NCBI GenBank assembly: GCA_963769985.1
Contig: CAVYNR010000012.1
Coordinates: forward strand, 50,766-114,765
DNA: 64,000 nucleotides
Direction of reading: 5' to 3'
DNA from: an uncultured Actinomycetes bacterium
GTDB taxonomy: Bacteria > Actinomycetota > Acidimicrobiia > Acidimicrobiales > JACCXE01
A program made the translations under genes and the position numbers. The notes under the pieces were generated by a model. The model worked only from the letters and a program-made list of their open reading frames with translations, searched no databases and was not told where the DNA came from. Of the stretch, positions 1 through 46,508 are shown one piece after another. Each line of letters opens with the position of its first letter. Within the stretch, counting starts at the first letter, position 1.

Positions 1-144
1 AAACCCGCGCCGGTGACAGCGGGCATTGCGTCATCTCGTCAGCGAGAGTTGCGCCCGGTTTTGCCACGAGGAACACGCCGGTACATACCCGCTGTTCGCG
101 GCGTCAACCACAATCCTTTGAAAGGCTTCCTGAATGTCTTCCCG

Positions 145-3100
145 CTAGAGGTTGATGATGTCGGTGTGCACAAGGCGGCGGCCGGAGGGACGGTTCAAGA
201 ACTCGGTGCCCTTGAACAACACTTCGAACTCCTCGAACACGAGACGCTTCGCCCCACCCGAACGGGGCACGTTCACCTGGCCTTGCCACGTGACGTTGTT
301 GATGTCGTTGCTCGACGGCGTGAGCAACGTCGGATCGCCAACGGGGTTCCAGCCCAAGTTGGGGTCGACGATGCCGGCTGACTTCTGTTCGACGGTGACG
401 CGCGCCTCCGCCGGTCCGGCCCGTCCGACCACCGAGGCGTAACTGCGTCCGGTCAGGCTGACCGCATACTTCAGCGGCCCGCGCGGCAACGACGCGAGGG
501 GAACGACGGACGCGGTGCGCGTCGGCGACAGTTGGATGAAGTCGGCGAGCACAACGGGCGACAGATGCGCGTTTGGGACCGAGTTGTGCTGGTACCGAGC
601 CAAGGCTAAGCGGATGAACGGCGTGTAGGACTTGCCGTGGTTGACGATGATGTCGCAGAACCACAGATCACGCGTGGCGTCGAACCCGACGTTGTGCGCG
701 GCGACATCGACGAACACGCCCGGTCGTTCCACTAAGGCACGGACGCTGTCGTGCGACGCGTCGCGCCGCGAGAAGCTGCTGAGGACCGGTCGCACACCCG
801 GCTCGTGGAACGATTTGTAGACGGGATCGATTCCCCACATCGTGACGTGCGGCGCCACCAAAGGCACTGGGTCGATCTGGCCGGCGTCGGGTCGCCACAG
901 CACGACCGCGAGCTGCTCCCCGTCGCCCGACGACCACCACGGACGGTCCATGTAGACCCGGAGACCGTCGCCGTGACGGGTGCTGGTGAGTCCGCTCGGG
1001 GACTTGTCCCAGTCGAAGGTCGGCACGACGTACAAGACCTTCGGCGCCTGGGGTCGCGCCGAGTTCGACACGATCCGCACGACGGGCGTTCCCGACGAGT
1101 GGATCTCAGGCTGCACGAAGTCGACGTCGACAAGGGTGCCCGACGGGAATGCCGTTGCCGACGCGGGTGATAGTGCCTGCGGATTCGTTGACGACGAAGT
1201 CGCCCTCCGGACCGCGTCGATAGGTCTGACCGCCGGGACCGCTCTTGCGAACGACCACCGCCGACTCCTCGAGCTGCGGCGCCACCGACACCGGTCCCGA
1301 GGTCATCGGTAATCCCGCTCGGTGTTCGGTGAAGTACTCGGTGAACGACGAGGTTGCCGTTGCTTGATACGCCACGAGCCTGTACTTGGTGTCGCCGAAC
1401 TCGTGGCGGTTGTTCAAATCGAGCACACCAGGCTGACCGTTGCGGCTCTCGATCGGCAACGTGAACGCGTGCGACCTGAAGTTGCGCGGCGGGACCGGAT
1501 TGTTCTCGACCGTCAGCGGCACCGGTGCACCGGTGGTCGGATTGCGCGGTCGTGGCCCGGTGTCGATCGGCATTTGCCAGGCGCCGTCGACGTCAATGCT
1601 CACCGTGCTCTGGCGGTGGAACGTGAGCTCGCGCTGCAGCGTGGCGAACGTGTCACCCAGGACCTTGCTCACCGACAGCTGCGGGAACTCGGGGGACGCG
1701 AGCGGTGTGCGCACCGCATGCACGAACTTCACGTCGCGGTAAGGCGTGAACATCCAGTGGCGGCCCGCCTGGACGTGGCGACGCCGACCCTCCAACGACG
1801 GGTTGGCAGCGCCAAGCCGGTTCACCAACCACTGCCACTGCCCCATCACGTCGACGTCGTCATCGGTCATGCCGCCGCAGCTGATGCGCACGTCGAACAC
1901 GTCGGACTTGACCAGGCTCACGTTGAGGAACCGGTCGGCGACTTCGAAGAACTGCCACGAGGACGCCGTTGGTGCCTTCGTTGTCGCGATACGGAACGGG
2001 CGGTACCCGGGCCAGCGCGGCCCGTCGAAAAGCGGATCGGGCTCGAACGGGACCGAAGCGGTGGTGCCGTCGTCCAACGGCGTCGGAGCCGTCGCCGGCA
2101 AGCCACGCAACACCGCTTTGCGCGCCAACACGTCGGGCATGTAATTGAGCGCGAGCGGTGACGTCGGATAAATGAACGTGGTCGGCGCCCCGTCGACTAC
2201 CGGGCCGCCGGGTTCGGGCACCGCCGCCGGGTGGCCTTCGAGTGTGCCGGCGTCGAGCGCCGCGATCTGCGCGTGCGTCAACTTGGTGATAGAGCCGTAC
2301 GCACCGTCGTCGAACAAGCCGTGGTGTTCAGCGGTGAGCTCGCTCGTGCGCGGCGGCATCACGTGGCGATCGGACTCGTCGACCACTAGCGGACCCGGAT
2401 CGTCGGCCGCGTTCTCGCTGCGAATGACGACGATCTCGGGAGACTCGCCTTCGATGCGCACGGCGCGCAACAACAGTGTCGGCTGCGCCACCGGCTCGAA
2501 GCGGGTGAACATTTCGGGCGCGGTCACGAGCTCCTCGTCGCGGGCGCCGGCGCCTTGGTCGAACGGCACGCTGTTGCCGGCGAGGTCGACGACGCGGGCG
2601 CGGACGAGATAGATGTGACCGAAGCGCAGCCGCGGCAACGAACCCGGCTTCGCCTTGGGCCGGATCTCAAGACCGAACTCGGATTCGGACGTGTTGTCCG
2701 ACGTCTCCAACTGATCGGTCGGCGAAATCGTCTTGCCTGGACGCGAGGCGACGAGACTCCACCCGTCCCACCGCATGAGTGATTCCTGCAGGTACAGGTC
2801 GGTCGACGAATGGTCGGCGGCGCCCGTCGGTGCCGCGGTGAAGGTGCCCTCGTCGTCGAAGTCGACCGTGGTCTGCCCTGGGGCATTCAAGAACTTGTAC
2901 GTTCCGATGCGCGCCATCAGCGTGCGCCAACCGAGCGGGCTCGGTTCGTCGGGCAGACCGTCGTGAACGTCGAAGCGGTAGCCGCGCACGATGTCCTCGA
3001 GATAGATGTGCGGATGTGCAGGCTGGGGCACCCCGTTGCTGTCGACCGCCGACGCGTTGAGGTCAGATCCGCTCTCCATTGCGATGACAAAGTGGGGCGC

Positions 3101-4237
3101 GATGCCCAACTGGGCTACGGAAATTCCGCTGCTGCGCAACGACGGAAGCGCGTAGTTGGTCGGGCTGGCCAGCGAGAGTTTCTTGAGCGGGTTCAGATCC
3201 GGTCGGGCGCGCTGCAGGTTGTCCGCCAGCATCATCGCCTTGAGGCCGGCGCCGTCAGGTTCGACGACCACGACATCGAACCGGTCCTCGTCGGCCAGCC
3301 ACGCGTGGCCGCGCTCGAACACACTTGAAGCCGGATCCCTTGGTGACGTCTCGAACACCGGCGGCGCGAACTTGCAGTGCGTCTGCGGCGTCACGTCGCG
3401 ACGCGTGGCGGTCTCGGTGGGCGACGAGGCGGTCCAAGGTGCGAGCACCTCGACTGTCGCGTCGAGCGGGGTGCCGCCGGGGTCGATCGGCGTGTCCACG
3501 ACCAGGTCGACGACCAGCCCGAGAAGGCGCAACAGCGGTGGGTGCTGCAACACGAACGCCAGAACGTCATGGAAGTCGGGCACGGGCCTTGGGATCGTGC
3601 CAAGGAGCACCTTGCCGCGCGGCTTGAGGAACGTCTCGAGCTGGAGGAACTGCTTGCCGATCTCGTCGGGGGTTGCTGGCGCGGCAACCGAGTACGGCAC
3701 CGCCTTGTTGGCGGTGAGTTCGCCCTCGAGATCCTCGCTGAGCCGGGCGCGCCGTTCGATTCCGATCTCGGGCACGTCGCCGCGAGCCGAGAAGCCGGCG
3801 GGACCCAGCGCATCGTCACCGGCGATCTCCTCCCACGACGGATAGTTCTCGGCCGCGATGTCGGCGAACTTGGCGTACTGCTCCTGCAGGAACCCGACGA
3901 CGTGCTTGACGTTGTAGGAACGGATCTTGGCAGTGTTAAACGCCTTGAACACGTGGGACCGAACGGTTGTCGCGGGCGGGAAGAGCGCGGCCCACAACGC
4001 GGGGTCAGGAGTACTGGTCGCAGTGGCGGGAAGCGTCCACGCGAGCGTCGGAAAGTGCACGCTCCACGAGAACGACGCGAGGGTGTTGGGCCAGTTCGCA
4101 AAGTCGTCAAACGTGGCCAGCGTCGTGGGTCCACCACCGGTGGCAACCAGACGTGGAGCCACGTGCACCGAGAGCCGCACCTGACTGCCCTCACCGCCGT
4201 TCGGCAACGCCGTCCAGAAGATCGTCTGCGTCGCCAT
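145..4237 (-). CDS. Large uncharacterised protein (about 1360 aa), split by an apparent +1 indel near 1145; partner of the upstream Tat-signal protein
   Basis: ATG at 4237 (MATQTIFWTALPNG) lies 1 nt after the upstream stop. ORF 1106..4405 joins ORF 145..1116 if one C is removed from ATTCCCGTCG, giving ...GNGIPSGTLVDVDFVQPEIHSS. The sequence is ordered and Trp/aromatic-rich, with an Ig/FN3-like YLVRARVVDLAGN motif. Confidence 0.8.
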
Positions 4238-4238
4238 C

Positions 4239-7200
4239 TCAGATTCCGATCGCAAACGCGTCGGTGTACTCGTCCCACGCGGCGGCGTCGATCTGGTCGC
4301 CGAAGGTCGGATCGTCGGGACCGTTGCCGAAGCCGCGCCGACACGTGATTTCGACCGATCCGCTGAAGACGAACACGGATATCTCGACGGTGAGCGTGGC
4401 CTCACCCACTGCCTTCTCAGGCGACGTCTGGTACGAGAGGCCCATGTAGAACTCGAGCGAGAGAGTGATAAAGCCCATCACGTCGAGCTCGCCCGCAAGG
4501 CGCACGTAGCCGGTGAGGGTGCAGTTTTCGCCGCCGCCTTCGATCGCTTCGACCTTGAAGTAGATGCCGGCCATGAGCTCGACACTTCCGCTGGCAACGC
4601 CGAGGTCGACCGCGCACGACGCGCCGAACTCAAGGCCCGCTTCCATGAGTTCGACACCGTCAGCGCCGATCTCCACCGCGAAGAACCCGCCGCCACCAAA
4701 GATCGACACGGTGAGAATGAACTGGTTTTGGCGCTCGCAGAACGCGAAGCGCACGCGCACCGGCGATCCGTCGAACGGGATGACGATGCCGACGAACACC
4801 GCGATGTTGCGCAGGCTGAAAACGCCGACCGAGATGTTGGGTAGCTCGATGCCGATGCTCGCCGAAATGCGATCGCCCAGCACGTCGATTGTCGGCCCGC
4901 TGCCGCCGCCGAACGAGCAGAACTCCGACAGCGCTTCGACAAACTTGAGGACTCCCGCGAACCCGGTGTTCGTGATGTCGACGTCGACCTTGGATTTCTG
5001 ATCCGTACCCGAGGTGAACGCCAGGCGCGCCACCTCGATGATCAGGAACTTGCTCGCCTCGTTGTCGCCGATCAGGTTCAGCGTGAAATCGCGTAGCTCG
5101 CCCCGGATGACGAACGTGGAGGTCGGCGGAGTCGTGCGCCGCGTCGTGAGTACCGCTTCGAGGTCGAGGCGCTTCGCCCCTCCAGGAACGAAGATGCCGA
5201 GCGGATCGGAGTCGAGGTCCGGATGCCAGTCGAGCTTGGTCTCGATGCGGTCGGGTAGTTCGAGCTGCTTGAGCTTCATCGCTTCCGGTGGCGAGCCGCC
5301 GAGCAGGGCGACGGTCTTGATGATGGCGAACAGATCGATGCCGCCGAGGATCTTCGCTTCGGCTCCTCCGAAGAACTCGGCGGCGTCGAAGTTGCCGCCC
5401 TTTAGCGCGCCACCAGGACCCAGGTCGCCGCCGACCGGACCGAGCGTGCGCGACAGACCGGTGATCGCCAAGTTCGGCGTGAGCACGCCACCCGACCGCT
5501 CGGTCGGAAACTGCAGGTCGGTCGCGCCGCTGACTTTGAGGAACACGCCGCTGGCGTTGGCCGCGCCGAACGCGTTCTTGAGGTAATCAGCGTCGTAGCT
5601 CACGACGCTCGGCGTCAGCGGCCCGCCCGACGCCTGTTCGGCCGCAGCCATGCGCGTGGACGCGTCGGTCATCGTCGGGTAGAAGCGGGGTTGGCCCTCG
5701 GACACCAGGTCGCCGTCGCTCTCGACTTCTCCGTACTCGGGCAGCAACGCGCCTTCGTCTGCGCCGAACCGCATCGTCTCGACTTGGATCGTCGTGTCGC
5801 CGAGCGTGCCCGGCTGGGCGACCGCGACCTTCTGACCCTTCAGCGTTGTGAGTCGCACTGCGTCGTCGGCCAAGTTGTTGTACGTGCTAACGATCGGGCC
5901 GGTGTGCAGCATCGAATACGCGCGCGTCGACGAGACGAACACCGCTGGCGCATCGAATTCCACCGTCTGGTCGGCGAAGTCCTTGGCCACGAAATGAAAC
6001 GGATGCGGCTGACCGCCGACCCGCAGCAGGAAGACCTTCGTGATGTCCTGCGAGCCGAACGGCACCTTGGGCTCGAGGTTGGGGGTAACGACGTTGGTGA
6101 TCTTGAGCGAGCGGAAGGGGAAGGCGCGCGAGTCGTACCGTCGCCCCGGCGCGTCGTCGTAGGTCTTTCGTGGTTGAGTGACCACGACGAACAGCCGCTG
6201 GCGCAGGTAGGCCCCGCGTTGGCCGTTGCCGAATGGCCGCGCGAACTTGCGCTCGGTGATCTTGATGAGGACCGCCTTGTGGCCCCACGGGAACAAGTGC
6301 CCGCGGCGCACAACCCGTACGTAGTTATCCCGCGCCATGACGCCCTGGTGTCGCCACTGAATGAGGTCGGACGTGTACGCGAGTTGCGGATTGGTCGGCG
6401 GATCCCACACACCGTCGACGTCGATCCAGCCACCGAGGCTCGACAACATCAGCCGGTCGACATCGATCGCCTCCGGCACGTAATCGGGCAGCGTAAAGTC
6501 GGCGCTCAGCCGCACGATGTCGTAGCGGTCAAGCGAGGTCAGCGACGAGCGGAATGGCTGCGGCGGCTCGGTCTCGTTGGGCTCGTTGTTGTTCGCGAGT
6601 TGGTTGGCGAAACCCGGGTCACGCGCCCAAATCCCGCGCACGGTGCGGTTGGCGGTGTCGACCTCATCGACGAAGAACCCGGCGGGGCCGGTCCGGCGAC
6701 GGGCCAGACGCGTGTGCCACAGCTCGGTCCGCATTCCGCCGTGGTCGACGGGCGCCAACGCGTGCGCCCACGCCGCGCCAACATGCGGTGACAGCACCAG
6801 GTAGCGCGGCAGTTCGATCTGCGTCTCGACGTCGCCCGGCGCGACCAGCCGTGGCTTGGCGCGGCCGGGCACGAAGTTGGGCGCGGCCGCCGCGGGAACG
6901 ACGCGCAGGGCGAACTTGGCCCATGAGAGCAGCGCGCTGGTGGTGTAGGGCAACGGCAAGGCACTGTTGGGCACCTCGAAGGCCAGCCGCGTCGGCCCTG
7001 CGAGCAGCGCGTCGATCGGTGACGGGAGCGGATTCTCCGGCCCACCTGGCGGTGCCGGCGGCGGGCTCTCACCCTCGCTTGGCGGCGGTGGAATATCCTC
7101 GGGGTCGGTCGGTTGCGCCCCCTCGGTCTCGAAGAAGGCGCGCTCGGTGATGCTCTGCGGCGGGAACTCGACGGCGAAGTACGACGGTCGGCCAGCGATG

Positions 7201-7514
7201 ACCTTTACGAGCGATCCGTTCGCAACCCGAAGGTTGTAAAAGTGGAAGCGGAGCGCCAAGAAATCCTCACGTCGCCGCAGCCAGGCGCTGAAGTTGAGGG
7301 TCGGCACGAGACCGGAGACGAAGCCAAAGAGTCCACCGAGGACTTGCTGAAGCGAAAGTGCGTCGGCGGTTCCCGGTATCTGCGACGCCGCAACCCCCGC
7401 GACACCGGCGGCGGCAATGAACTGACGACGTGACACACCGTTGGAATCGGGTTCGGGATCGGGCTCTACGGGACCGTTACCGGCCTGCAACCCGTCCTGC
7501 GGATTCGGTGCCAT
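4239..7514 (-). CDS. Large uncharacterised protein (about 1090 aa) with a twin-arginine (Tat) signal and a beta-rich C-terminus
   Basis: Intact 1093-aa ORF. SRRQFIAAAGVAGVAA...ADA fits a Tat signal. G-rich SD-like run precedes ATG 7514 (alternative GTG at 7520). C-terminal region has alternating hydrophobic beta-strands and FGGGGFF. Confidence 0.85.
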   Translation of the reverse strand: MAPNPQDGLQAGNGPVEPDPEPDSNGVSRRQFIAAAGVAGVAASQIPGTADALSLQQVLGGLFGFVSGLVPTLNFSAWLRRREDFLALRFHFYNLRVANGSLVKVIAGRPSYFAVEFPPQSITERAFFETEGAQPTDPEDIPPPPSEGESPPPAPPGGPENPLPSPIDALLAGPTRLAFEVPNSALPLPYTTSALLSWAKFALRVVPAAAAPNFVPGRAKPRLVAPGDVETQIELPRYLVLSPHVGAAWAHALAPVDHGGMRTELWHTRLARRRTGPAGFFVDEVDTANRTVRGIWARDPGFANQLANNNEPNETEPPQPFRSSLTSLDRYDIVRLSADFTLPDYVPEAIDVDRLMLSSLGGWIDVDGVWDPPTNPQLAYTSDLIQWRHQGVMARDNYVRVVRRGHLFPWGHKAVLIKITERKFARPFGNGQRGAYLRQRLFVVVTQPRKTYDDAPGRRYDSRAFPFRSLKITNVVTPNLEPKVPFGSQDITKVFLLRVGGQPHPFHFVAKDFADQTVEFDAPAVFVSSTRAYSMLHTGPIVSTYNNLADDAVRLTTLKGQKVAVAQPGTLGDTTIQVETMRFGADEGALLPEYGEVESDGDLVSEGQPRFYPTMTDASTRMAAAEQASGGPLTPSVVSYDADYLKNAFGAANASGVFLKVSGATDLQFPTERSGGVLTPNLAITGLSRTLGPVGGDLGPGGALKGGNFDAAEFFGGAEAKILGGIDLFAIIKTVALLGGSPPEAMKLKQLELPDRIETKLDWHPDLDSDPLGIFVPGGAKRLDLEAVLTTRRTTPPTSTFVIRGELRDFTLNLIGDNEASKFLIIEVARLAFTSGTDQKSKVDVDITNTGFAGVLKFVEALSEFCSFGGGSGPTIDVLGDRISASIGIELPNISVGVFSLRNIAVFVGIVIPFDGSPVRVRFAFCERQNQFILTVSIFGGGGFFAVEIGADGVELMEAGLEFGASCAVDLGVASGSVELMAGIYFKVEAIEGGGENCTLTGYVRLAGELDVMGFITLSLEFYMGLSYQTSPEKAVGEATLTVEISVFVFSGSVEITCRRGFGNGPDDPTFGDQIDAAAWDEYTDAFAIGI

Positions 7515-7567
7515 CGGCACCCCCCGATCTAGGTGTCGTCAGCAGACAGCACCTTTGTCGGACGGTA

Positions 7568-7930
7568 TCAGCTACGGCGCGGTTTGTTCCAGGGTGCGGC
7601 GGCCTCGTTGAACGGCACGAGGTCGCGGCGATATTGCTGACGCATCCGATCCAGCTCTTGGCGCAGCTGCGCGTTCTCGGCTTCGAGCGCCATGATGCGA
7701 CGCACGCCTTCGAGGTTGTGGCCGTCGGCGGTGAGTTCTTGGATGCGACGCAGCAGCGCGATGTCCTGGTCGGAGTAGCGACGGCTACCACCACCCGTGC
7801 GCGCCGGGCCCACCAGGCCGCGCCGTTCGTAGATGCGCAGTGTCTGCGGGTGCACACCCGCAAGCTCCGCCGCCACCGAGATCACATAGACGGCCCGCGT
7901 GCCGCGGTCGTCGTCGGAATCACCAAACAT
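7568..7930 (-). CDS. hspR: Heat-shock transcriptional repressor HspR (MerR family)
   Basis: VYVISVAAELAGVHPQTLRIYERRGLVGPARTGGGSRRYS motif; last gene after dnaK-grpE-dnaJ. Confidence 0.95.
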   Translation of the reverse strand: MFGDSDDDRGTRAVYVISVAAELAGVHPQTLRIYERRGLVGPARTGGGSRRYSDQDIALLRRIQELTADGHNLEGVRRIMALEAENAQLRQELDRMRQQYRRDLVPFNEAAAPWNKPRRS

Positions 7931-7940
7931 GCACTACCTC

Positions 7941-9080
7941 CTACACACCGAGATGCGCGCGCAACTGCGCGCCCGCATCGGGTTCGGCGGCGGCCACCGA
8001 TTCGACAGCCGCGCGCATTTCGTCGGACAGATTGTGAGGCACGTCGACGTGCACGGTGACCAAGAGGTCGCCGTTGGCGCGGCTCTCGCCGGGCACGCCT
8101 CGCCCGCGCACGCGCAGCACCGCACCGGCCGCGGTGCCAGCCGGGATGCGCACGGTGACGGGATCGCTCAACGTCGGCACCTTCACCGTGGTACCCAAAG
8201 TTGCCTCCGGAAACGTCACGGGCACAGTTAGCGTGAGATTGCGGTCGGAACGGCCGAACAACGGGTGCGTGCCGACGCGCACCGTGACATAAAGATCGCC
8301 CGACGGACCGCCGTTGTGGCCGGCCGCGCCGCGGCCCTTCAACCGGATCCGCTGGCCGTCGACCACGCCCGCCGGGATGCGTACCTTCACCTTGCGGGGC
8401 TTGCGCTCCACTCCGCTACCGCGGCAGTTGCTGCACGGCGTCTCGATCTTCATCCCGTGACCGCCGCAGGTCTGACACGTCTGGCTGAAGCTGAACATGC
8501 CTTGGTTGTCGCTGACCACGCCGCGACCGCCGCACGTGGGACAGATCACCGGCGACGTGCCCGGCGCGGCGCCGCTGCCGCTACAGACCGAACACGGTGC
8601 GTCGCTCTCGATGTTGACCTGGGTGGTGATGCCCTGGACGGCGTCGACGAAACTCAGGTGCAGCTCCGCCGCGAGATCGGCACCGCGTTGGGGACCGACA
8701 CCGGCGCCTGGCCCGGCGCCACCGCCGGCGCGACCGCGGCCGCGGTTGAACAGGTTGCCGAGGAGGTCGCCGAGGTCGTCGACGCGGAAGTTGCCACCGA
8801 AGCCGCCACCACCTCCGCCACCGCCGAACACATTGCCGATCGGACCGAGCCGGCGAACCTCGTCGTACTCCTTGCGCTTGTCGGCGTCGCCGAGCACGTC
8901 GTACGCGGCTGACACTTCCTTGAACCGCGTCTCGGCGGCGTCGTCACCGGGCTTGGCGTCGGGATGGTTCTCTTTCGCGAGCTTGCGATAGGCGCGCGTG
9001 ATCTCTTTGTCGGTCGCGGTGTCGGAAACACCGAGGACTTTGTAGAAGTCCGTCCCGTACCACTCGCGCTGCGGGGCCAT
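7941..9080 (-). CDS. dnaJ: Molecular chaperone DnaJ
   Basis: J-domain with HPD, G/F-rich region and four CxxCxGxG zinc-finger repeats. Confidence 0.97.
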   Translation of the reverse strand: MAPQREWYGTDFYKVLGVSDTATDKEITRAYRKLAKENHPDAKPGDDAAETRFKEVSAAYDVLGDADKRKEYDEVRRLGPIGNVFGGGGGGGGFGGNFRVDDLGDLLGNLFNRGRGRAGGGAGPGAGVGPQRGADLAAELHLSFVDAVQGITTQVNIESDAPCSVCSGSGAAPGTSPVICPTCGGRGVVSDNQGMFSFSQTCQTCGGHGMKIETPCSNCRGSGVERKPRKVKVRIPAGVVDGQRIRLKGRGAAGHNGGPSGDLYVTVRVGTHPLFGRSDRNLTLTVPVTFPEATLGTTVKVPTLSDPVTVRIPAGTAAGAVLRVRGRGVPGESRANGDLLVTVHVDVPHNLSDEMRAAVESVAAAEPDAGAQLRAHLGV

Positions 9081-9093
9081 GGGCCTATCGGTC

Positions 9094-9667
9094 CTAGCTG
9101 CCCTTGACCTTCACCATGGCGGGGCGAAGGACGCGGCCGTTCCACTTCCAACCGGCGCGCAAGACCTCGATCACTTCAGGGAGCCCGTCGCCCTCTTCGT
9201 GGAGGACGGCGTCGTGGATTTCGGGGTCGAAGGCGGCGCCAAACGCATCAATGCGTTCGAGGCCTTCCTTGCCCAGGGCTTCGACGAGCGCAGTAGCAAT
9301 TTGCGCAACTGCGTCAGAAGGATCGTGCGCCAACGCCAGGTCAACCGTGTCGAGAACGTCGATCAACTTTGCGGCCAGCGATGCCGCACCGGTGTCGCGA
9401 GCCTCGGCCATTTCGCGCTGGACGCGCTTGCGATAGTTCTCGAAATCGGCCTGCGTACGGCGCAACGCGTCGAGGTACTCGTCGCGTTCGGTGGCGAGCG
9501 CGTCGAGCGGATCGATGTCGTCGGTGACTTCGCTGCCTGGTGCGATTGCAACGGCCTCTTCGGCGAGCATCGCCTCGAGTTCCGCGTCGAGATCGACGAC
9601 CGGTTCTTGGTCGCCGATCTCTTCGCCACGCTCGGGCTCGTCGAACGCGTCGAACGCGTCTTCCGGA

Positions 9668-9675
<8 letters not shown>
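9094..9675 (-). CDS. grpE: Nucleotide exchange factor GrpE
   Basis: [19 protein letters not shown] and [11 protein letters not shown] motifs; lies between dnaK and dnaJ. Confidence 0.96.
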
Positions 9676-11497
<1,822 letters not shown>

Positions 11498-44331: not shown

Positions 44332-45827
44332 GCGCGCGTCGCGCCGCCGGCGGCGCTGGTCGTGATGGGCGCGTCGGGCGACCTCACGGCGCGCAAACTC
44401 ATCCCGGCGATCGCGCGAGCTGCACGCCGGCGGGTTCCTGCCGCACGGCTTCACCTTCGTCGGCACGGCGCGCACCGAGATGACCGACGAGCGAGTTCCA
44501 GGCGAAGGTGCTGCAGAGCGGCGCCCGACGGGCGGCGACGGCTGGCGCGACGTGCGTCAAGCGGTTCCGCTACGTCACCGGCGAGTACCACTCGCCCGCG
44601 ACCTACATCGCGCTCGGCGAGGTGCTGCGCGAAGTCGACGCAGCGTGCGGCACCGGCGGCAACCGCATCTTCTATCTGGCCACGCTGCCGGCGGTGTTCC
44701 CGACGATCGTCGAACACCTCGGCGGCGCGGGCCTCAACCGCCCGTCGGGCGAGCGGCAAGTTCGCGCGCGTCGTGATCGAGAAGCCCTACGGCCGCGACC
44801 TCAAGAGCGCCGAGCGAACTCGACCGGACCGTGCACCAGTCCTTCGACGAGTCGCAGCGTGTACCGCATCGACCACTACCTCGGGAAGGAGACGGTGCAG
44901 AACGTGTTGGCGTTGCGGTTCGCCAACGCGATCTTCGAACCGATCTGGAACCGCCGCTACATCGACAACGTGCAGATCACCGTCGCCGAGACGCTCGGCG
45001 TCGGCCACCGCGCCGGCTTCTACGAGACCGCCGGCGCGCTGCGCGACATCGTGCAGAACCACGTCCTCCAGGTGCTGACGCTGGTGGCGATGGAGCCGCC
45101 GGCGCGCGTCCAGCCCGAGGAGATCCGCGACGAGAAGGTGAAGGTGCTGCAAGGCCATCGACGTGATGACGCCCGACGACGTCGAACGACTACACCGTGC
45201 GCGGCCAGTACAAGGCCGGCACGGTCGACGGCGACAAGGTCGTCGGCTACTGCACGGAAGACGGCGTGGCCAAGGACAGCCACACCGAGACCTACGTCGC
45301 CGCCAAGTTCATGATCGACAACTGGCGCTGGGCGGGCGTGCCGTTCTACTTGCGCACCGGCAAGCGGTTGAAGGCGCACGCCACCGAGATCGCGCTGGAG
45401 TTCAAGGGCGTGCCCGCACCTGCCGTTCATGGCCACCGACGCGACGCGAACTCGGGCCGAACCTGCTCGTCGTGCGCGTGCAACCCGACGAGGGCATCAC
45501 GCTGCGGTTCGGCGCCAAGGTGCCCGGGCCAGGAGTTCAACGTGCGCTCCGTCGACATGGACTTCACCTACGCCGAGACGTTCACCGAAGCCGTCGCCCG
45601 ACGCCTACGAGCGGCTGCTGCTCGACGCGCTCGTCGGCGACCCGACGCTGTTCATCCGCGCCGACGAAGTGCGCAAGGCGTGGCGCATCTGCGACCCGAT
45701 CCTCGACGGGTGGGACGAACGGACGACCCGCCGCTCGCGCCACTACAAGGCCGGGCACGTGGGGTCCGAAGGAGGCCGACGAGTTGCTCGGCGCGCGACG
45801 GCGACGCACTGGCACCGGCCGTCATAG
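44328..45827 (+). CDS. zwf: Glucose-6-phosphate 1-dehydrogenase (frameshifted)
   Basis: [44 protein letters not shown]. Confidence 0.93.
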
Positions 45828-45832
45828 GTGAC

Positions 45833-46508
45833 GTGTACGGCGAGCTGATCGTCGTCGACGACGTCCCGGGCGCGTTCGCGGCGCGCGTCGATCGAGGCGT
45901 GGCGCGCACCGGCCGCGGCACGTACTTCAGCCTCGTGGTGTCGGGCGGCGACCTGGCGCGGCGCTGCTACGAGCAGCTCGCGGCGGACGGCGCGCGACGT
46001 CATCGACTGGTCGACGGTCGACATCTACTGGGGTGACGAGCGGCTCGTGCCGCGACGCCACCCCGACTCGAACGAGTTGCTGGTGCGCGCAGGCGTTGAT
46101 CAACCGCGTGCCGCCGGTGCGCGGCGTGTTCCCGATGCGGGTCGAGTCGAACGCCGGCGCACTACGACGCGCTGGTGCGCGGCGGCGGCGCCGTTCGACT
46201 TGATGCACCTCGGCCTCGGCCCCGACGCGCACACCGCGTCGCTGTTCCCCGACTCCGACGCGCTCGACGCGCCGATCGACCCGCTACGTCGTCGACAACG
46301 TCGACCCGACGGGCGACAACTTCCACGCACGCCGCACGCTGACCTTCGCCGGCATCGCGCATGGGCGACCTCGTCGTCGTCACCGTCGACGGCGACGAGA
46401 AGCGCGACGCGATGCAGCGGGTGCGCGACGGCGACCCGACGTGCCCGCCGCGCACATCCGCGCGCCGCGCGTGGAATGGTTGGTGGAGAAACGCGATGCC
46501 GTGAATGA
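45833..46508 (+). CDS. pgl: 6-phosphogluconolactonase (frameshifted)
   Basis: [33 protein letters not shown]; follows zwf. Confidence 0.85.

Follow-up and report, generated by a model that had tools for sequence, protein, structure and literature searches.

Two very large genes separated by a single nucleotide raise the question of what their products do together, and on which side of the cytoplasmic membrane they do it. The genes, here called A and B, lie within the first 7.5 kb of a 64,000-nucleotide stretch of DNA from an uncultured Actinomycetes bacterium (GenBank assembly GCA_963769985.1, contig CAVYNR010000012.1, positions 50,766 to 114,765), and the whole of this stretch is referred to as the window. 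Both are on the minus strand, as read from the list of open reading frames (ORFs) and their translations:

4239..7514, minus strand: gene A, 1091 aa when translation starts at ATG 7514, as in the assembly's own annotation; stop codon 4239-4241
4239..7520, minus strand: the same ORF from an alternative start, the GTG at 7520, 1093 aa
145..4237, minus strand: gene B as a whole, about 1366 aa if read through, with one frame change inside
1106..4237, minus strand: first frame of gene B, 1043 aa; stop codon 1106-1108, past the frame change
145..1164, minus strand: second frame of gene B, the C-terminal ~323-340 aa; stop codon 145-147

Residues of A are numbered from the GTG (the 1093-aa form). The stop codon of A (4241-4239) and the ATG of B (4237-4235) are separated only by nucleotide 4238, so that the layout given in the initial annotation, two giant genes of about 1090 and 1360 aa with a 1-nt gap, was recovered in full. 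The calculated masses are 116.9 kDa for A and approximately 148.6 kDa for B (113.2 and 35.4 kDa for the two frames). Every motif that the initial annotation had quoted was present in the translations: ELWHTRL, LFPWGHKA and FGGGGFF in A, and RWDGWSL, HEFGDTKYR, RPWWSSGDGEQL and RLALARYQ in B. The C-terminal frame is the most conserved part of B and contains VLYVVPTF, RPWWSSGDGE and RLALARYQ. The window B is close in length to its homologues (median 1371 aa).

The pair is a real, widespread and strictly paired two-protein module that is undescribed: neither protein, nor their architecture, matches anything known.

Family status, pairing and distribution

Pfam and NCBIfam searches returned a twin-arginine translocation (Tat) signal on A as the only match, and nothing on B; Pfam also found no match in 20 B homologues. 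Neither protein was matched by PHROGs or PADLOC, the best E values in sequence-profile searches against the PDB were 0.12 and 0.14, and the ESM Atlas contained unnamed clusters only. No known catalytic arrangement was recognised in either protein, and in both of them Trp, Arg, Asp, Glu and His occupy many invariant positions. The absence of a recognisable catalytic signature, reported initially from the translations, was thus borne out across these databases, and neither protein maps to a characterised enzyme family; a confident mapping of both had been named as what would speak against the proposal. No description of such a pair was found in open-access PMC or bioRxiv full text.

In a collection clustered at 90% identity, 435 A homologues (E ≤ 1e-3) were found, all of them unnamed and devoid of Pfam domains, along with 141 B homologues at the same threshold. 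With a profile built from 41 A sequences, 6482 clusters (50% identity) were detected at E ≤ 1e-3, and 3472 of them also at E ≤ 1e-30. The A family alone, spread over at least 8 phyla with no member named or described by a domain, therefore represents a large annotation gap.

One genome per species was scanned for 185,579 species. The scan yielded 425 stretches encoding an A relative; the 80 loci retained come from Actinomycetota, Chloroflexota, Acidobacteriota (including Aminicenantes), Symbiobacteriaceae, Pseudomonadota, Ignavibacteria, Armatimonadota and two archaeal bins. Of these loci, 73 extend for 600 nt or more beyond the A match, and in 72 of them B comes next after A, in the same orientation; the sole exception ends inside gene A, and the other 7 of the 80 loci end at a contig edge. 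The gap between the A stop and the B start had a median of 14 nt, with 59 of 70 gaps falling within -20 to +30 nt. An evenly drawn sample of 401 genomes from the phylum contained A in 11, including an unpublished genome (G187). A query with a single B protein detected B in 9 of these 11 genomes, always directly downstream of A, and in 0 of the 390 A-negative genomes; the tenth A-positive genome has a divergent B downstream, detected with several B queries, and in the eleventh the contig ends 78 nt past A. Co-occurrence and gene order, which the initial annotation had proposed to check, are accordingly strict, B being confined to A-positive genomes among the 401.

Pairwise distances of A and B over 58 loci were correlated with an r of 0.959, a value reached in 0 of 999 Mantel permutations, and with an r of 0.63 when distant pairs are taken by themselves. 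A and B evolve equally fast (mean identity 41% for A, 40% for B). Because adjacent genes share their history anyway, the distance correlation shows co-inheritance, not binding.

The window's own genome contains three divergent A–B pairs, on contigs C12, C1 and C11, and B is downstream of A in all three. The copies outside the window are:

C1:237571-244537: further A–B copy, A identity 45%, broken into several frames
C11:620039-627700: further A–B copy, A identity 33-47%, broken into several frames

In a tree of 61 A sequences the window copy fell inside an actinomycete clade (support 98), the C1 copy was sister to a different actinomycete sequence (support 100) and the C11 copy lay far off on a long branch; the C1 and C11 copies are thus not recent duplicates of the window copy. 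Several well-supported clades of this tree mix phyla. Of the 9 other genomes in the genus, 3 have the pair; with the window's own genome included, it was present in 5 of 41 relatives overall. Its patchy, phylum-mixing pattern fits an accessory module that passes from lineage to lineage and comprises old, divergent subtypes, and mis-binned contigs may be a partial source of the mixing. Two loci (L024 and L050) carry the pair on contigs binned as archaea, in metagenome-assembled genomes of Nitrososphaerales and Methanothrix, which may reflect either transfer of the genes or mis-binning. Cultured carriers exist among Micromonospora, Dactylosporangium, Streptomyces, Kitasatospora, Saccharothrix and Bradyrhizobium strains, which makes the module easy to test.

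A conserved third partner, for which the initial annotation had suggested a search, was found neither by ORF clustering across the 80 loci nor among the neighbours of the C1 and C11 copies, which are unrelated metabolic genes. Neighbours such as photolyase and carbamoyl-phosphate synthase were shared only by close relatives. A large regulator with AAA_16 and GerE domains lies beside the pair in about 7 actinobacterial loci. Such AAA_16 (+GerE/LuxR) proteins, of approximately 950-1035 aa and in varying orientation, were seen at L014, L020, L022, L023, L035 and L059 and in the window's own genome at C11:631823-634930, and could regulate the pair.

The twin-arginine signal and the proposed export route

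A single export signal was identified in the pair, at the N-terminus of A:

7359..7514, minus strand: twin-arginine signal peptide of A, comprising SRRQF (7419-7433), an h-region rich in Ala and Gly, and A-D-A (residues 52-54)

SRRQF, located exactly where the initial annotation had placed it, corresponds to residues 30-34. The segment SRRQFIAAAGVAGVAASQIPGTADA has the features of a Tat substrate, namely a motif of the [ST]-R-R-x-F-L type, a weakly hydrophobic h-region and an A-x-A site, and the TIGR01409 model matched A with 18.3 bits against a cut-off of 16.7. R31 and R32 were invariant in 41 of 41 aligned A homologues, all of which have an Ala/Gly-rich h-region of approximately 15 residues after the arginine pair. 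The strict Tat motif was present in 85 of 120 A homologues among those listed, and several that miss it read PRRxFL or begin inside the protein, with truncated N-terminal calls. A second transmembrane helix after the signal, which would keep A in the cytoplasm, was considered and rejected: a second hydrophobic stretch occurred in only 5 of the 41 homologues and was absent from 36, so that a membrane hairpin is not conserved. No signal was found on B; an RR match, put down to chance, occurred in just 1 of 120 B homologues, whose conserved fold starts near residue 4. The restriction of the Tat signal to A, claimed initially for this one locus, therefore extends across the homologues of both proteins.

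A second architecture of the A family (P0266-P0321, 1350-1790 aa), found in 50 of 125 further A-family representatives, carries an N-terminal extension of 400-540 aa without a Pfam match. A recurring 'M..RLNL.ALR' stretch of 40-60 residues precedes the twin-arginine motif in these proteins, and [ST]RR was present in 19 of the 25 N-termini of extended relatives shown.

TatC was detected above cut-off in all five near-complete carrier genomes, one of them from the same genus. Omp85/BamA was detected in 0 of these five, and a search of the window's own genome did not find it either; some other carriers belong to diderm phyla. Because Omp85/BamA is missing from the five near-complete carriers, A is not an ordinary outer-membrane protein assembled by the beta-barrel assembly machinery (BAM) in those hosts.

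The arrangement resembles that of the Tat hitchhikers (hydrogenase small and large subunits, DmsAB, PaoABC and FdnGH), in which the signal is likewise on one subunit and the genes are adjacent and coupled; in A–B the signal is on A and the signal-less B is encoded beside it. The known hitchhikers are cofactor-containing redox enzymes of up to approximately 142 kDa, whereas A–B amounts to approximately 260 kDa and, unlike them, has no cofactor-binding family or motif detected by Pfam or NCBIfam. As in the hitchhikers, the keeping of Tat across phyla would be explained most simply by export of a pre-assembled folded complex.

Predicted structures and a possible A–B interface

The AlphaFold2 model of A (pLDDT 78.5, pTM 0.66) has a disordered signal region followed by two modules:

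5286..7307, minus strand: N-module of A, residues ~72-745, beta-rich, pLDDT mostly 85-97, the best-modelled part
4242..5285, minus strand: C-module of A, residues 746-1093, long up-and-down amphipathic beta-strands
4293-4919, minus strand: porin-like barrel or curved sheet of A as modelled, residues 868-1076, followed by a conserved C-terminal helix

The N-module holds the invariant ELWHTRL and LFPWGH motifs, and the invariant columns of the 41-sequence alignment include E266, W268, H269, R271, R397, D398 and R424. The two modules are taken as separable units because longer relatives carry inserts exactly between them. These very long relatives (P0244-P0257, 1939-3131 aa) have 300-1100 aa inserted between the N-module and the C-terminal barrel module, and the inserts match only sub-threshold coiled-coil, prominin and apolipoprotein-like models. 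When 38 long or odd A relatives were searched with Pfam, a CBM_4_9 domain was found in one, at the inter-module junction (38.7 bits, cut-off 25.9), and a C-terminal Rv2525c-like glycoside-hydrolase-like domain in another (32 bits, cut-off 27.2); the other matches were coiled-coil or apolipoprotein-like noise below cut-off. The two domains fit an extracytoplasmic, possibly glycan- or wall-associated role. B is predicted to be built of FN3-like sandwiches, in a model that covers the protein up to its last 323 aa.

Foldseek searches of the whole A and B models against the PDB and BFVD gave TM-scores of approximately 0.1 and were not informative. VIA-align placed residues 868-1076 of A on outer-membrane barrels; its matches for A were filled by the barrel and so cover this part of the chain. 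The values obtained were:

CymA: 13.3-13.6; 4.8-8.0; 192-201
OmpG: 12.6-13.2
PgaA: 12.4; 3.7; 179
FhaC: 12.2
EspP: 12.2

The strands between residues 877 and 1065 alternate strictly across the 41 sequences. One face has a mean hydropathy of 1.9-3.7 and at most 14% charged residues, whereas the opposite face has a hydropathy of about 0 to -2.3 and is 10-60% charged in 11 of 13 strands. Turns of 2-5 residues are modelled at both strand ends. On this model the C-module is predicted to be a very large amphipathic beta-surface, whose hydrophobic face may point outward, as in a membrane barrel, or inward onto a lipid or other hydrophobic cavity, or may be a surface covered by B.

A differs from the outer-membrane beta-barrels that it resembles in fold (CymA, OmpG, PgaA, PelB, FhaC and autotransporter beta-domains) in having a Tat rather than a Sec signal, in having the modelled barrel confined to the last fifth of a soluble-looking chain of 117 kDa, with short turns at both strand ends, in occurring in carriers without Omp85/BamA (0 of 5), and in matching none of their sequence families. 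Two-partner secretion (TpsB/TpsA) offers another comparison, for which Pfam found no POTRA, TPS or haemagglutinin-repeat family in A, B or the 20 B homologues, and structure searches with the N-module of A were swamped by barrel matches; A–B differs from it in gene order, in a large partner that lacks a Sec signal and in its monoderm-type hosts without BAM. In the comparison with lipid-transfer beta-groove proteins of the AsmA/TamB type, an amphipathic sheet is modelled in A, and no AsmA/DUF490-type match was found in Pfam or NCBIfam. Foldseek gave a probability of 0.30 (TM 0.04) for microsomal triglyceride transfer protein and 0.18 for P47, and a membrane anchor beyond the Tat signal is absent from 36 of 41 A homologues.

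For B, comparison with multi-FN3/Ig proteins (alpha-2-macroglobulin, complement-like proteins, lambda gpJ) gave TM-scores of approximately 0.1 and no whole-protein match. Alpha-2-macroglobulin itself scored a Foldseek probability of 0.04-0.15 and a TM of 0.05-0.08, and no A2M Pfam family was matched. The first 1043 aa of B contain only 3 Cys and no thioester-type Cys motif of the kind found in thioester proteins. One B homologue, P0216, is named 'Baseplate protein J-like' in UniRef, but Pfam finds nothing in it; no PHROGs match, no phage or tail genes among the conserved neighbours and no BFVD Foldseek TM above about 0.1 connected the pair with phage tails or baseplates.

A and B were also compared with each other as possible distant paralogues, a relationship that was rejected because the hhalign result (A 249-511 against B 304-549, probability 0.73%, E 0.077) was not significant. 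The alignment pairs A 'AYLRQR.F..V..P.K' with B 'LYL.ESLF.WDGWSL..PRPGK', and A 'G.PF.FH..G.D.AG' with B 'G..YR.RARAVDLAGNS'. Judged on sequence, an ancient relationship is possible, not demonstrated.

Binding between the two proteins was addressed by complex prediction with the parts that flank the gene junction, A 684-1093 and B 1-585. The three scores were 0.17, 0.46 and 0.48, giving a median of 0.46, against 0.00 for the highest-scoring of 3 controls. The runs agreed in at least 15% of contacts, with a partner pLDDT of at least 77. In the calibration, 116 of 157 solved complexes and 2 of 215 mismatched pairs attained the mark; with a score of 0.60 or under, only 18 of these solved complexes attained it, together with both mismatches. 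The prediction thus lends weak support to binding of A and B. The interface check suggested in the initial annotation came out in favour of the pair to this extent, for partial A and B.

Weighing the readings of the module

The reading that we put forward, tentatively and with somewhat less than even confidence, is a new Tat-targeted, two-subunit extracytoplasmic complex in which B hitchhikes on A and the barrel or sheet of A contacts a membrane or a hydrophobic ligand. A and B would together make up a single complex, as its two subunits, and belong to an undescribed family that has spread horizontally. B would be translated from the message of A a few bases downstream and bind A in the cytoplasm; A would cross the cytoplasmic membrane folded, via Tat, and the signal-less B would exit with it. 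Outside, the C-terminal amphipathic barrel or sheet would engage a membrane or another hydrophobic surface or ligand, and the N-module, with the compact FN3-rich body of B, would serve in binding and might also be catalytic, with a glycan or cell-envelope polymer as a possible target. Binding, co-export and function are inferred here. The Tat signal kept on A in every lineage, with no signal on B in any of them, would be explained most simply by folding or assembly ahead of export, and the genes are spaced at translational-coupling distance. The co-exported hetero-complex of the initial annotation is therefore supported in part, as regards strict pairing and the A-only Tat signal, with a weakly predicted interface and a hypothetical exit of B by hitchhiking.

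Several results weigh against this reading. A and B together, at approximately 260 kDa, come to nearly twice the mass of FdnGH, which with 142 kDa and 6.4 nm counts as one of the largest Tat substrates known (PMC13186574). No hard size limit for Tat cargo is established. The Pfam TAT_signal model (PF10518) scored 12.8 on A, below its cut-off of 22.7, and no TatC was detected in the 61.5%-complete genome to which the window belongs. No A–B fusion was seen in 14 longer proteins or in the 125 further representatives. The barrel likeness is that of a generic fold, with a pLDDT of only 66-88 in this part, and accessory carbohydrate domains occurred in just 2 of the 38 scanned A relatives. In the complex prediction, which returned a verdict of no more than weak support, chain A had a pLDDT of 47-54 and under half of each protein was covered. 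A more specific form, in which a ~260-kDa heterodimer passes through Tat and A then inserts its porin-like barrel by itself, without BAM, in monoderms, as a pore or conduit with an FN3-rich partner, is distinctly unlikely.

If A alone is exported, B would remain behind in the cytoplasm and might hold or shield the large hydrophobic beta-surface of A before export, act as an assembly factor or be a cytoplasmic-side partner. B carries no signal of any kind, the pair is far above any known Tat cargo in size, the amphipathic surface of A would need shielding in the cytoplasm, and the weakly predicted contact falls on the C-module of A. The known Tat-specific chaperones are small proteins, however, whereas B is approximately 148 kDa and as conserved as A (40% against 41% mean identity); FN3-like sandwiches are commoner in extracellular proteins, as a general tendency only, and the use of Tat rather than Sec across phyla is simplest if pre-assembled cargo is exported. 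A cytoplasmic B is, on this balance, fairly unlikely. We regard as unlikely an extracellular complex that binds, or acts as an enzyme on, a glycan or cell-wall polymer and whose C-terminal barrel is soluble and not membrane-active. The CBM_4_9 and Rv2525c-like domains of two A relatives, a sub-threshold cohesin match in one relative (20.6 bits, cut-off 24.1), the many invariant Trp, Arg, Asp, Glu and His residues in both proteins, the FN3-like modules of B, the AAA_16 and GerE regulators adjoining the pair in about 7 actinobacterial loci and the sugar and exopolysaccharide porins among the top barrel matches (CymA, OmpG, PgaA, PelB, BcsC) are consistent with such a complex. Nevertheless, no glycoside hydrolase, lyase or esterase family was found in A, B or their 20 and 38 relatives, the accessory domains are as scarce and the barrel matches as generic as stated above, and the conserved neighbours include no sugar transporter or catabolic gene.

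A secreted two-component pore-forming toxin or translocator, the barrel of A inserting itself into a target membrane that B binds, would account for a porin-like barrel in hosts without BAM (Omp85 in 0 of 5), for the patchy spread (425 stretches in 185,579 species genomes, 5 of 41 relatives, 11 of 401 genomes in the phylum), for clades that mix phyla and for three divergent copies in one genome, and it needs no conserved neighbours. It is nevertheless very unlikely: the searches gave no match to a toxin, MACPF, Tc or Rhs family, Foldseek matches to Rhs/Tc shells had probabilities of at most 0.09 and a TM of approximately 0.06, no immunity-like small gene is conserved nearby, and many hosts are free-living soil, sediment or digester lineages. 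Self-insertion into membranes is not known for monomeric barrels of 12-14 strands. The binary toxin, surface appendage and lipid bridge that the initial annotation had offered as examples found no direct support. The window copy could also be a decaying pseudogene from which nothing functional is made in this genome, given the frame change in the assembled B and the broken state of the other two copies:

about 1134..1164, minus strand: frame change in B, within a short G/C-run context; tblastn places the switch of five intact homologues at this site

The five homologues follow the first frame down to ~1139-1163 and the other frame from ~1143-1170, approximately 10 nt from the indel that had been placed near 1145, and the two parts of B are contiguous in intact homologues. 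Both frames have a third-position GC content (GC3) of 0.82-0.84 and full-length homology with no further stops. The housekeeping gene zwf (glucose-6-phosphate dehydrogenase, plus strand) is likewise split, over overlapping frames at 44484-45314 and 45170-46036, which suggests indel errors in the assembly (3.02 Mb in 14 contigs). Because zwf and both other A–B copies are also broken and the genome is incomplete, the frame change is probably an assembly indel rather than gene decay, and a decaying pseudogene is very unlikely.

If B does leave with A in a Tat-exported complex, the known size limit of Tat would be roughly doubled, and models of the translocation pore could be tested on a giant cargo that occurs in nature; insertion of the C-terminal barrel into a membrane in hosts without BAM would, if it takes place, mean a new route to beta-barrel membrane proteins. 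Even a mere surface enzyme or binding complex would add two new folds or families with a fixed partnership.

A promoter and terminator scan of positions 1-8200 gave 0 promoter-like sites (0.7 expected) and 4 terminator-like sites (5.7 expected). Directly upstream of A, on the same strand, lies a complete minus-strand operon of dnaK (9668-11497), grpE (9094-9675), dnaJ (7941-9080) and an hspR-like MerR gene (7568-7930). The hspR stop is 53 nt from the ATG of A, and no terminator-like site was detected between them. A link of the pair to this operon was considered and rejected; the adjacency is treated as coincidence because it is kept neither in the 80 related loci nor at the two other copies. 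In the split zwf (44484-46036), G6PD_C positions 1-86 fall in one ORF and 92-227 in the next, and the N-terminal domain is partly covered.

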